DNA of 64,000 bases from contig VGJO01000002.1 in NCBI GenBank assembly GCA_016867415.1, forward strand, positions 118,472-182,471. Direction: 5' to 3'. Origin of the DNA: Candidatus Harrisonbacteria bacterium (GTDB lineage Bacteria > Patescibacteriota > Minisyncoccia > UBA6257 > UBA11618). Made by a program: the position numbers and the translations under genes. Below are positions 1,803 through 57,590 of this stretch, piece by piece (positions within the stretch are counted from its first letter, which is position 1; each line of letters begins with the position of its first letter). Below the pieces are notes generated by a model. The model searched no databases and was not told the origin of the DNA. It worked only from the letters and a program-made list of their open reading frames with translations.

Positions 1803-1994
1803 TATAGTAGCTCTGATTTTTAAAAAACCAGAAAAAATCTTCGATTATTATTCTTTTTATAAGAATAATAAAAAACGACCTTTCGGCCGCAAACAAAATA
1901 GAAGTAAAGCAATAAAAATTGCTTTTTCCTCGGCAGGACCTCTGGGTTTCCCCCGCCTGCTGTCTGCGGAACTCTTATTAATATATATTGTATT

Positions 1995-3075: not shown

Positions 3076-3369
3076 TTAGTAGTTACTATCATCGTTCGAG
3101 CTCATTCTTGGCGCTCGTCCGCCCTCCGGCTCCTCAATCTTTAGATTGACGCGGGCATTATTTTTGACACCCACAATTCGGAGTAAGGATCGGATAGCCT
3201 TCGCGGTCGAACCCTGCCGACCTACCACGACTCCCATGTCCTGCGGATTTACTCTCAGGGAAAGTAAAACGCCCATCTCATCGACTTTGCGCTCTACTTT
3301 GACATCCGATGGATTATCAACAATAGCCTCCACTAAAGTCTGCAGAAATTCCTGATCTCTTTCAGCCAT
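3076..3369 (-). CDS. KH-domain RNA-binding protein (YlqC/KhpA-like)
   Basis: 97 aa; VVGRQGSTAKAIRSLL is a KH GXXG loop context; sits between rpsP and trmD as in the conserved rpsP-KH-rimM-trmD-rplS cluster. Confidence 0.7.
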   Translation of the reverse strand: MAERDQEFLQTLVEAIVDNPSDVKVERKVDEMGVLLSLRVNPQDMGVVVGRQGSTAKAIRSLLRIVGVKNNARVNLKIEEPEGGRAPRMSSNDDSNY

Positions 3370-3469
3370 TCTTTCGAAATTTAGTAATAGTCTTTCTTTC
3401 CCGACCTTTTCTGTACCCAGCTAGTATAGCAAAAAGAAGAAAAAGAAGCAAAAAAATAAGGCAAAAGCC

Positions 3470-3757
3470 TTATTTTTTTGCTTCTTCAGCCTTTTTTCTA
3501 CTATGAACCGCAATTTTCTTTCCTTCAATCACCGCATTTTTAACAAGAAGATTATTCACCGTATCTGTCTTCTGCGCTCCGACACTAATCCAGTGCTTCA
3601 CGCGATCTGCATTTATCTTCGTCTCTTTGGAGTGCGGATTGTAATACCCGAGATCTTCAAGCACCTTTCCATCATTTTTGTCTCGGCGCTCATTAACAAT
3701 CAAGCGATATGCCGCCTGATGCTTCTTGCCAATCCGCTTAAGCTTTAATACCAACAT
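3470..3757 (-). CDS. rpsP: 30S ribosomal protein S16
   Basis: 95 aa; MLVLKLKRIGKKHQAAYRLIV...YYNP matches S16 family N-terminus. Confidence 0.9.
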   Translation of the reverse strand: MLVLKLKRIGKKHQAAYRLIVNERRDKNDGKVLEDLGYYNPHSKETKINADRVKHWISVGAQKTDTVNNLLVKNAVIEGKKIAVHSRKKAEEAKK

Positions 3758-34251: not shown

Positions 34252-34299
34252 TAGAAAATAAAACCGCTTTTTCTATAAAAAAGCGGATTTATTTTCTTT
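34252..34299. terminator. Bidirectional terminator-like hairpin downstream of tRNA-Met
   Basis: aaaccgcttttt-ctat-aaaaagcggattt flanked by A/T runs on both sides. Confidence 0.45.
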
Positions 34300-34305
34300 T
34301 CGGGG

Positions 34306-34444
34306 TGGCTGGGGTGGGGAGTCTTACTACTCGAAACTTTTCTCATAAAGAAAAGTTTCTGCGTCCGTAAACCCCTCGGTTTACGATATCCGCCACGGAA
34401 AACTTCCGTTTCCCGACCCCTTCCCCTTCGACCCCCACCCCAGC
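34306..34444. repeat. Duplicated copies of the tRNA-Met 3' end (direct 14-nt copy at 34306-34319; 18-nt perfect inverted copy at 34428-34444)
   Basis: tggctggggtgggg (34306) repeats tRNA 3' segment at 34465; ttcgacccccaccccagc (34428-34444) is the exact reverse complement of gctggggtgggggtcgaa in the tRNA. Confidence 0.7.
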
Positions 34445-34464
34445 ATAAAAAAGCAAGCTTTTTG

Positions 34465-34538
34465 TGGCTGGGGTGGGGGTCGAACCCACGACCTAGGGGT
34501 TATGATTCCCTCGCTCTAACCAACTGAGCTACCCAGCC
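34465..34538 (-). tRNA. tRNA-Met or tRNA-Ile2 (anticodon CAT), elongator type
   Basis: Cloverleaf resembling elongator tRNA-Met: GGCUGGG acceptor, GCUCAGUUGGUUAGAGC D arm, loop AUCAUAA, T arm GUGGG-UUCGACC-CCCAC. Confidence 0.75.
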
Positions 34539-34669
34539 TACTTCTACAGAGAATGTAAAGCTCATAATAGCTTATTTTCCGGCACTTTAAAAGATGTAAT
34601 CATTTTTCTTTACGTGACTACCTTAGCGTTTATACCTCCTATTCCGGAAAAGTAAAACGTATCCTTATT

Positions 34670-34812
34670 GCGACCTTCTGCAGAAAAGAAGCTTGGCTTT
34701 TTTGTGATATGCTTTTGTCTAGTTTTCTATCCTCAAAGGCATACCACAAAAAATTCTTTTCGAAGCCTGAATGAGAGCTCGCAGGAGCTTTCATGTGTCG
34801 TAATAAGGATAT
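34670..34812 (+). repeat. Family B repeat, 3' module copy B4
   Basis: gaccttctgcagaaaag...ttttttgtgatatgcttttg...cataccacaaaaaattcttttcgaagcctgaatgagagctcgcaggagctttcatgtgtc. Confidence 0.6.
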
Positions 34813-34835
34813 TTTTTACTTTTCCCCTCCCTTTG

Positions 34836-34907
34836 TTGCCGGGGTCGGATTTGAACCGACGACCTTCGGATTATGAGCCCGACGAGCTACCACTGCTCCA
34901 CCCGGCG
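34836..34907 (-). tRNA. Initiator tRNA-fMet (anticodon CAT)
   Basis: Near-identical to canonical bacterial initiator: CGCCGGGUGGAGCAGUGGUAGCUCGUCGGGCUCAUAAUCCGAAGGUCGUCGGUUCAAAUCCGACCCCGGCAA with C1xA72 mismatch and three G-C pairs in the anticodon stem. Confidence 0.85.
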
Positions 34908-34958
34908 ATACTGAAAATTAACCTCCTAATTATATAAAGTTTTTAGAAAAAAGACAAG

Positions 34959-35663
34959 CTAAGCAAAAGCAATAATATCAGCAATTTCTCCTCTCAATGA
35001 TGCTCCCCCCACTAAAGTACCCTCAATAACACTTTCCTTTAAAAAATCTTCGGCATTGTTTTTGTCCACCGAACCTCCATACAAAAATTTCACTTTCGTA
35101 AAGTCTTTTTTTTCAACAACTTCCCGTAATCCTTCAATCACCTTTACTGCTCTTTCGGGCACATCCGCCTCCGCCCCAGCATTCGTCGAAATCGCCCACC
35201 ATGGCTCATACGCCACATGCATCTCCTTCTCCTCCAATCCCCGCAATTCAAAAAGTACTCGCTCTAAACTTTCTCTCACTATTCTTTCTCCCCCTCCCTT
35301 TTCCTTCTCCCCCACACAGATAATCGGCACCATCCCGGAAAAGATTACCGCTCGCGCCTTCTCCCCTACTTCTCTATCCGTCTCCCCCAAACGCCGCCGC
35401 TCACTATGCCCGATAATAATCGCTTTCACGCCAAGATCCTTAAGTTCCGTAGCGGTCACCTGTCCTGTCTGCCCCCCAGGCCTCGGAAGCGCTACGTCCT
35501 GTGCCGCCAAACTCGCCTTCTCTAAGGTCTCCCTCACCGCCTCAAGATACACAAACGGCGGCGCCACAAAGACAAATGGAAAATCACACTCCTTCGCGAG
35601 CCGTACTGCCTCCCGTCTTGTCCCAGGATTCGCCTTCCAATTCGCCACAATCACCTTCCCCAT
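34959..35663 (-). CDS. tpiA: Triosephosphate isomerase
   Basis: 234 aa; ANWKAN, IIGHSERR, VGEKEKGG-like and FLYGGSV motifs. Confidence 0.9.
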   Translation of the reverse strand: MGKVIVANWKANPGTRREAVRLAKECDFPFVFVAPPFVYLEAVRETLEKASLAAQDVALPRPGGQTGQVTATELKDLGVKAIIIGHSERRRLGETDREVGEKARAVIFSGMVPIICVGEKEKGGGERIVRESLERVLFELRGLEEKEMHVAYEPWWAISTNAGAEADVPERAVKVIEGLREVVEKKDFTKVKFLYGGSVDKNNAEDFLKESVIEGTLVGGASLRGEIADIIAFA

Positions 35664-45816: not shown

Positions 45817-45980
45817 AAAAAATTATTTTTGAAGCCTGAATGAAAGCTTGCTGGATCATAGGACTTTTTGTGCTCTAATAGTCTGAAGATCCACAGTACT
45901 TGGGGGCCTTTCATGTATTGGGAAAAACTTGAGCTTATTTTTTTCCTCTCCCTCTAAATTACTATCTACTAGCCACTGCT

Positions 45981-57269: not shown

Positions 57270-57590
57270 AAAGTCTTTGACTTTTTGCTCACCCCTCCAC
57301 TCTCTCCTCTCTTTATTACATCTCAATCTCTGCGCCAGCAAAGAACTCTACCTTTCCCGTGAGTGACCTTCTGCAGGACGAGCTTCCACAAAGAAAAATA
57401 TTCTTTAAAGAAAAAAACAAAAGCATCAGTATAAAAAGACTAAAACAAGATAAAGTCAGCGAGGCATGGTTTTTTCATGGTGTTATTTTTTCTTCTTCTT
57501 TCCCAAAAATAACACCATGAAAAATTTTCTCCGAAGCCTGAATGAAAGCTCGCAGGAGCTTTCATGTGTCACGAAGGGGAAAGGTGGGGT
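57270..57590 (+). repeat. Family B composite repeat, copy B3
   Basis: aaaaagtctttgactttttgctcacc...gtgaccttctgcag...catggtgttatttttt...aaaataacaccatg...gcctgaatgaaagctcgcaggagctttcatgtgtcacgaagg. Confidence 0.7.

Follow-up and report, generated by a model that had tools for sequence, protein, structure and literature searches.

A gene-less module between a Met tRNA gene and its terminator in a Patescibacteria genome, possibly a miniature element bounded by copies of the tRNA 3' end

The 64,000-nucleotide (nt) stretch of Candidatus Harrisonbacteria contig VGJO01000002.1 analysed here (hereafter the window) carries on its minus strand a tRNA-Met(CAU) gene that is separated from its terminator by a gene-less module of 159 nt (34305-34463), in which the end of the tRNA recurs as a direct and as an inverted copy. 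A first-pass annotation of the window had noted the tRNA, and both ARAGORN and Rfam call it on this strand. The gene is of the elongator type and does not encode CCA; it may alternatively have tRNA-Ile2 (lysidine) identity. In 5' to 3' order along the minus strand, the tRNA is followed by a 16-nt mini-hairpin, an inverted copy (B), a degenerate inverted copy (B'), three hairpins (H1, H2 and H3), a direct copy (C), the flank CCCGAAAAG and the terminator. The 144 nt between the direct repeats hold no open reading frame (ORF). The features of the locus are as follows.

34464-34538, minus strand: tRNA-Met(CAU) gene (ARAGORN, 34464-34538; Rfam tRNA, 64.9 bits, 34465-34538).
34464-34484, minus strand: copy A, the 3' segment of the tRNA itself, from the T-loop through the 3' strands of T-stem and acceptor to the discriminator and one further nt.
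34448-34463, minus strand: spacer mini-hairpin AAAAAGC-UU-GCUUUUU, the tip of the 28-nt quasi-palindrome A/B.
34427-34444, minus strand: copy B, 18 nt that are reverse-complementary to tRNA positions 54-71 without a mismatch.
34414-34426, minus strand: B', the G-rich motif GGGGAAGGGGUCG, a second, degenerate inverted copy and degenerate repeat of B.
34396-34415, minus strand: hairpin H1, 8 base pairs (bp) with a GGAA loop.
34361-34393, minus strand: hairpin H2, a core of 8-9 bp at 34366-34385 with an outer 3-bp extension.
34333-34359, minus strand: hairpin H3, 12 bp with a UAU loop, not conserved in the related contig L009 described below.
34305-34323, minus strand: copy C, the distal repeat in direct orientation, from the end of the T-loop through the 3' strands of T-stem and acceptor to the discriminator and one further nt, 15 nt of it perfect.
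34253-34304, minus strand: flank CCCGAAAAG and intrinsic terminator (terminator 34253-34297), a 10-bp stem followed by TTTTATTTTC.

Copy A, the last 21 nt of the tRNA, is the template for both repeats. The direct repeat is perfect over 15 nt (GTGGCTGGGGTGGGG, at 34305-34319 and 34464-34478), reaches about 19 nt if one T is inserted (GAC[T]CCCCACCCCAGCCAC, minus strand), and runs from the start of the T-loop to one base beyond the discriminator (tRNA positions ~57/60 to 74). The inverted repeat is perfect over 18 nt (34427-34444 against 34467-34484, with 22 nt between the arms) and widens to 28-nt arms with 89% complementarity and 2 nt between them; the A-B hairpin is predicted to fold at -44.1 kcal/mol (z=-7.6). 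Both repeats had been noticed in the first pass, the inverted one rightly as a perfect 18-mer, and only their edges shift: the inverted copy begins at 34427 and not 34428, the distance given as 20 nt is 22 nt, and the direct copy reported as 14 nt at 34306-34319 is 15 nt at 34305-34319. None of 200 shuffles of the downstream 250 nt attained a 15-nt direct or an 18-nt inverted match, the 64 kb contain the 12-mer GCTGGGGTGGGG three times and no more, every time at this locus, and the other three tRNAs in the window show nothing like these repeats, which are real and far beyond chance. A 10-nt repeat, GCTTTTTTAT (34275-34284 and 34445-34454), was considered as a target duplication and rejected as a low-complexity chance match. 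B and B' together also spell a canonical G-quadruplex motif (GGGGTGGGGGTCGAAGGGGAAGGGG, 34417-34441, minus strand). The 64 kb hold only three such motifs, each of them on the minus strand, where every gene identified in the window lies.

The terminator, claimed in the first pass at 34260-34290, is present at 34253-34297. The case named there as a refutation, that the repeat is simply part of a conserved terminator, does not apply, since the scan finds a single terminator at 34264-34286 plus its tail, as a separate hairpin downstream of C and ~150 nt past the A-B hairpin, which is itself followed by GGGGAAGGGG with no U-tract. The wider explanation, that the repeats belong to the tRNA terminator or to a known RNA such as a two-piece transfer-messenger RNA (tmRNA), a group I intron or the signal recognition particle (SRP) RNA, is effectively refuted and keeps only a minimal probability. 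Its best support is a weak match of the Rfam permuted-tmRNA model over the A-B hairpin (12.9 bits, E=3.3); this compares with a gathering score of 47 and reflects that hairpin only, and ARAGORN finds no tmRNA. Group I introns are frequent in Patescibacteria tRNA genes, but the module is too short for one and the described introns lie at anticodon-loop position 35/36, away from the T-loop and the 3' end (PMC13011429). Group I, SRP, 6S and RNase P models gave no match at E up to 10 at the window or the L009 locus, and Rfam 15 left the module unmatched both at gathering thresholds, applied to the entire window, and at E<=10, applied to the window and L009 loci: the tRNAs alone passed, the other matches being to generic hairpins (mir families).

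Folding predictions give the module a structure of its own. The 137 nt from B to C are predicted to form a closed four-way junction with three internal hairpins at -69.0 kcal/mol (z=-5.5), against -61.3 kcal/mol for the less stable antisense strand. Copy C is the 3' strand of the closing stem, a 12-bp helix that reproduces tRNA positions 60-71 of the acceptor/T-stem stack continuously and is followed by C-A-CCC. Copy B has alternative partners, A (18 bp) or C (12 bp plus 3 bp across a 1-nt bulge), and the global minimum, with A and B paired, lies at -138.8 kcal/mol against -122.1 kcal/mol for the cloverleaf plus B-C junction, a gap of ~17 kcal/mol in nearest-neighbour energies that take no account of the tertiary structure of the tRNA, of its modifications or of transcription order. 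Because A-B pairing is favoured over the native tRNA by this measure, some mechanism must deal with B. The state in which the tRNA is rebuilt with the distal copy comes to about -129 kcal/mol, an approximate value computed with the anticodon stem mis-indexed by one base. We found no promoter-like site between tRNA-Met(CAU) and the terminator, and the perfect-consensus promoter of the next gene lies past the terminator. With tRNA, module and terminator on the same strand and no intervening promoter, the module should be transcribed as the tRNA's 3' trailer, and its position would place it in the tRNA transcript.

A relative of the module came from following TIM homologues to their contigs, where look-up P0004 reached L009, a distant contig of Parcubacteria type with a TIM 50% identical to that of the window; the two genomes are very distant. 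Look-ups P0002, P0003, P0007, P0011, P0018 and P0033 showed no tRNA-Met near TIM. A covariance model built from the window core alone (34358-34428) and searched against 161 kb recovered L009 3414-3483 at 35.9 bits (E=2.6e-8), with the next match at E=0.29. The L009 element sits behind an initiator tRNA-fMet (3332-3404). Lying 2 nt past the tRNA gene is GAUUUGCAC, a 9-nt inverted copy of the fMet T-loop, followed by GAAAGGGUCGGAAAACGGGAGUUUUCCG, which matches the G-rich motif and H1 of the window (22/24 over the core). After H1 come an H2-like hairpin and then UCCCUCUUCCGCAAC, which copies the fMet tRNA's own end: the distal copy TCCCTCTTCCGCAAC (3503-3517) agrees with the tRNA end TCCCTCTCCCGCAAC (3390-3404) at 14/15 positions. 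The direct repeat again extends from the T-loop to one base past the discriminator (tRNA positions ~54/60 to 74), and the order closes with CCCUGUAAAGAAAAG and a terminator.

H1 with its four 5' bases keeps 22/24 nt and 8/8 pairs in L009, the single stem difference being a G.U pair in the window and an A-U pair in L009, and the 3' part of B', GGGGUCG, is kept as well. H2 retains nine pairs in the model alignment, with three two-sided changes and one one-sided; its outer 3 bp are not conserved. Both hairpins are predicted to fold in both genomes, and all four G.U pairs in the hairpins of the two loci are valid on the tRNA-sense strand only. Together, the covariance match, the two-sided changes and the sense-only G.U pairs indicate that the core is homologous and under constraint as a structure of the sense strand. 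As the tRNA is an elongator Met in the window and an initiator fMet in L009, the flanking repeat matches whichever tRNA is upstream. A related insert behind a different Met tRNA in a distant relative thus points to a small recurring element and not to the scar of a lost island. Two other accounts of the locus were tried and dropped. A small-ORF core, suggested by 21-aa and 35-aa frames that share KGSxNGSFP, has no ribosome-binding site, and the likeness follows the conserved hairpin. A tRNA interrupted in its T-loop, with C as the true 3' end, disagrees with the degenerate T-loop of C in the window (UAAGACU vs UUCGACC) and with L009, where only the distal copy has a G.U pair with the 5' strand and the proximal one stays Watson-Crick.

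The L009 locus bears directly on the first-pass suggestion of an excised island, by which a genomic island or prophage once lay between attachment (att) sites attL and attR and was then excised or deleted. The direct repeat of the tRNA 3' end has the right orientation and extent for this, and the terminator after C resembles a native tRNA trailer, with a similar flank at the empty site of another contig, L021. Precise site-specific excision, though, restores a single attB and leaves no duplication, and here two repeat copies remain. No integrase, mobile-element or island gene lies within 10 kb of the module, where the neighbours are all housekeeping genes, and the L009 contig carries no integrase or island gene either. 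Four patterns (the tRNA end, the B...C stem, and the H1 core in strict and degenerate form) found nothing on viral contigs, or chance matches in GC-rich phage genes, so that neither the tRNA end nor the hairpin core lies on any phage or viral contig searched; BLAST against phages and plasmids returned only matches of the tRNA body to other tRNAs. The 144 nt moreover contain a structure-constrained core that recurs behind another tRNA in a distant genome, and independent decay of two islands would not produce a shared non-coding core in two deeply diverged genomes. We regard an island relic as very unlikely.

The same comparison speaks to an origin by purely local replication accidents, template switching or quasi-palindrome correction together with slippage, with neither a family nor a function. 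A single template switch is enough to create a perfect inverted repeat (PMC8794818), B and B' resemble a 15-nt tandem duplication, and inverted T-arm fragments lie near other tRNA genes in related contigs. Such accidents explain neither the homologous core in L009 nor the same direct-repeat extent at two different tRNAs, and we consider them improbable as the whole explanation. Template switching may nonetheless be the origin of B, or of its perfect 18-mer, in this genome.

Relatives with unoccupied sites were found by following MurD, the gene beside the L009 tRNA-fMet, into two lineages (L021-L023 and L026). L021 and L026 carry an orthologous, near-identical tRNA-fMet, divergent from murD, that runs directly into its terminator with no element. 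For the window's own tRNA-Met the sole empty-site comparison is a gene from Uhrbacteria whose last 29 nt are identical and which lacks the module. The exact 29-mer of the tRNA 3' part occurred in one Uhrbacteria metagenome-assembled genome only when searched in the genome collection, and an exact 20-mer in the metagenome collection returned the same Uhrbacteria sequence and three chance matches in GC-rich contigs; these scans used tRNA-end patterns. With its site unoccupied in relatives, the module is an insertion/deletion polymorphism that has direct repeats of the tRNA 3' end as its borders.

Taken with the intact tRNA and the duplication from T-loop to gene end, these empty sites complete the signature by which elements integrated at tRNA genes are recognised (PMC4383910), and the geometry of the insertion footprint proposed in the first pass is supported: the tRNA is intact and a displaced copy of its 3' end lies in direct orientation. 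Our preferred reading, held tentatively and with slightly less than even confidence, is that the module is a gene-less, non-autonomous, att-flanked mini-element at Met-tRNA 3' ends that is carried in the tRNA transcript. Among the first-pass suggestions, 'miniature element' is the one that fits best, given the homologous core and same geometry behind fMet in L009 and the two lineages whose orthologous fMet genes lack the element. On this reading the two loci represent a small family of non-coding elements in CPR (candidate phyla radiation) bacteria of the Parcubacteria/Paceibacteria type, each member bounded by a duplicated segment of its resident tRNA from the T-loop to one base past the discriminator. 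What we observed are the repeats, the predicted folds, the family relationship, occupied and empty sites, the lack of a nearby integrase and the position in the tRNA transcription unit; the recombination mechanism, any continuing mobility and any role for the trailer RNA are inferred, with the mechanism and the RNA function drawn from only two members.

We propose that recombination within the segment from the T-loop to the discriminator would insert the module, so that the working tRNA is completed by the proximal copy A, and the displaced duplicate ends up as the distal copy C. A tyrosine integrase that crosses over in the T-loop would yield exactly this geometry. The cargo would be the conserved RNA hairpin pair only, making the element non-autonomous, a miniature att-flanked element that has lost its integrase. 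The module would be transcribed as the tRNA trailer, and in this genome B would pair with C to close the four-way junction. The empty-site state in the window would have the tRNA joined straight to CCCCGAAAAG.

Among known systems, the nearest in layout are the tRNA islands of tyrosine integrases, recognised by the Islander principle, which likewise have an intact tRNA, a direct copy of the 3' segment from T-loop to gene end (14/15 in L009) and empty sites. The module differs from them in its 144 nt between repeats, with no integrase, genes or island, and in its extra inverted copy and conserved RNA-type interior. The class of tRNA-gene integration with T-loop sublocation, reportedly defined by Williams in 2002, is one whose T-loop crossover the repeat extent fits. 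A second comparison is the cis-mobilizable element (CIME), an att-flanked element without an integrase (PMC5704250). In layout the module fits a CIME, with repeats at a tRNA 3' end that would correspond to attL and attR and no recombinase of its own, and by analogy a related integrase acting in trans could in principle move it. Described CIMEs, in contrast, are kilobase-scale decay products of identifiable integrative and conjugative or integrative and mobilizable elements (ICEs/IMEs) in Firmicutes, whereas the module, at ~115-145 nt, is an order of magnitude smaller and its tiny core recurs in two deeply diverged genomes with no known parent element; our viral, phage and plasmid searches found no parent ICE or IME with a matching integrase. 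Unlike a miniature inverted-repeat transposable element (MITE), the module has B and C as terminal inverted repeats of 12-15 bp in the window only, their L009 equivalents matching at 6/9 positions, no short flanking target duplication and a single copy in the 64 kb.

Other resemblances are looser. In integron attC sites, which are imperfect hairpins of 57-141 nt, the two outer arms carry the recombination core once inverted and once direct. The module shares this arm layout, with the direct copy also at the preceding junction; the analogy is one of layout only, and the module has no integron integrase, cassette ORF or GTTRRRY core. The Escherichia coli tyrT operon has downstream 178-bp tandem repeats, each opening with the last 19 nt of the tRNA-Tyr gene, and a small ORF. 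Here too a ~19-nt direct duplication of the tRNA 3' end lies in a transcribed trailer ahead of a terminator, but the module has an inverted copy, is not tandem, has no ORF, and is non-homologous and from another phylum.

The main rival to the element reading is that the module is a functional tRNA-trailer RNA, vertically inherited and not mobile, whose closing helix imitates the acceptor/T-stem stack of a tRNA (12 bp plus A-CCC). Either RNase P, RNase Z and the CCA-adding enzyme would excise and finish the RNA in tRNA-like fashion, or the antisense copy B would tune tRNA-Met maturation through folding competition. We consider such a trailer RNA possible but on the doubtful side; it is compatible with the element reading, and the two are not mutually exclusive. 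The trailer account draws on the placement of the module between tRNA and terminator, on the tRNA strand, at both loci, on the compensatory changes and sense-strand-only G.U pairs of the hairpins, on the cloverleaf-like outline of the four-way junction, and on the continuous 12-bp B-C helix with its C-A-CCC end; the energetic advantage of A-B pairing over the native tRNA likewise calls for B to be handled. The first-pass suggestion of a structure affecting 3' processing may therefore also apply, since the module is placed ahead of the tRNA's terminator and only the sense strand allows its hairpins to pair fully.

Tending the other way is the patchy distribution, with two orthologous fMet genes and one near-identical tRNA-Met that lack the module. 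L009 has no convincing minihelix, and its tRNA fold is not out-competed (-85.9 vs -86.2). A strand-swap fold conserved in both genomes was accordingly not upheld, being strongly favoured in the window and not in L009. Mimicry, moreover, requires a 12-bp helix and not identity to the neighbouring tRNA, and no Rfam family matches. Known tRNA-like processing signals include p4.5S RNA, an RNase P substrate that ends in ACCC, acceptor/T-arm minihelices and the eukaryotic mascRNA from MALAT1. The modelled module resembles them in its 12-bp acceptor and T-stem helix, its discriminator plus CC and its place downstream of another RNA in the transcript; it is unlike them in that the helix is sequence-identical to the neighbouring tRNA, not just tRNA-shaped, and in that L009 lacks it.

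Several observations weigh against the element reading, some of them in favour of the trailer. The flank after C in L009, CCCYGWAAAGAAAA, resembles that of the window although the tRNAs differ. If C were a displaced host fragment, the flank beyond it should be unrelated host DNA; its similarity suggests a conserved unit that may extend across C as far as the terminator, and this would suit a functional trailer better than an att boundary. In both genomes, omitting B still lets the G-rich 5' motif pair with the C-rich 3' copy. The integrase model also leaves the inverted copy B unexplained, and the B-C closing helix, strong in the window, has no clear equivalent in L009. An integrase (within 10 kb, and on the L009 contig), a circular form and a second copy are all unseen, and the covariance model finds a single copy of the module in the 64-kb window. 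The family is known from two members, the window and L009, and gain and loss are not distinguishable, since the empty sites could stem from deletion between the direct repeats.

A bolder combination of the two ideas is rather unlikely: that the module represents an undescribed class of gene-less Patescibacteria elements at Met tRNA 3' ends, whose transcript, with sense and antisense T-loop/acceptor copies on a two-hairpin scaffold, would be active as RNA. It might be excised and finished like a tRNA, act as a strand-exchange toggle of tRNA-Met maturation, or guide its own insertion.

Upstream of tRNA-Met(CAU) the locus continues with two further features.

34835-34907, minus strand: initiator tRNA-fMet (ARAGORN and Rfam), with a C1-A72 mismatch.
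34646-34825, minus strand: structured spacer between tRNA-fMet and tRNA-Met, with a 29-bp closing stem.

A promoter-like site at 34929-34957, together with the tRNA-fMet, is the likely start of the transcription unit. The spacer, which is context and lies outside the module, has a 29-bp stem, 90% complementary, around a 20-bp hairpin (fold z=-5.7). The spacer stems and the 28-bp A-B duplex put several long double-stranded stems, of the type that RNase III takes as substrate, into one transcript. The spacer also holds a ~40-nt intergenic motif, GACACATGAAAGCTCCTGCGAGCT[C/T]TCATTCAGGCTTCG, with a 10-bp hairpin, found at 34761-34799, at 57532-57570 and partially at 45817-45848 (minus strand). Its two full copies, one between the two tRNAs and the other ~75 nt past the stop of a 581-aa ORF, are 97% identical, and both precede long A/T-rich terminator-like hairpins that differ in sequence. 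The motif may be a repeat family or a 3'-untranslated-region motif.

Neighbouring genes encode MreB, MreC, PBP2, TIM, PheS/PheT, GyrB, SecE, NusG and L11, on one strand throughout, and an L10 ribosomal protein leader (Rfam RF00557, 52.1 bits, 1859-1987, minus strand) lies in the ribosomal-protein context expected of it. Homologues of the window TIM carry the names Parcubacteria, Colwellbacteria and Paceibacterota, the closest being 52% identical (a JGI contig at 99% aside), and the source lineage is a sparsely sampled part of the CPR. That JGI contig, Ga0194128_10000477, has only 3 substitutions over the 6.7 kb compared with the window and, being near-identical, supplies no covariation. The substitutions, at 35390, 35399 and 35403, are each to C and fall within a 14-nt span inside the TIM gene.

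Several observations concern the tRNA genes at large. None of those checked in the window, L009, L013, L021, L024 and L026 encodes a full CCA; most commonly the discriminator is followed by C and then A (as in ACAAA), and CC or CCC occurs in a minority comprising the window tRNA-Val, the L021 fMet, two tRNA-Asp genes and the module distal copies. Inverted copies of T-arm sequence accompany further tRNAs. In Uhrbacteria (L007 9911-9932) a 22-nt, 91% inverted copy of tRNA positions 42-62 lies beyond the tRNA-Met terminator; the L009 tRNA-Asp has inverted T-arm copies CCGGATTTGAA and CGGATTTGAA on either side (1871-1881 and 2031-2040); and GGGACTCGAACCC lies past tRNA-Asp in L021 (5465-5477). As T-arms are alike between tRNAs, these copies need not be self-specific. 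The initiator fMet genes beside murD in three lineages (L009 3332-3404; L021 3872-3945, minus strand; L026 380-452, minus strand) have a non-canonical T-loop, UGCAAAU, with G at position 55 in place of a near-universal U, and a D-loop of AGUAGUA where the window fMet has AGUGGUA; this looks like covariation of their D-loop/T-loop tertiary pair.

Genomes of the CPR/Patescibacteria are tiny and have few recognisable mobile elements or regulatory RNAs. If the element reading is true, a module of ~115-160 nt would be the smallest known relative of the tRNA-targeting integrative elements, and the question would become which enzyme moves it. Alternatively, if the trailer RNA is the better account, the module would be a new small RNA, linked to a tRNA and processed by borrowing tRNA identity. 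Island-finding that looks for a tRNA plus a displaced fragment would drop such cases as too short or miscall them; either way, the module offers a concrete search model for surveys of CPR genomes.

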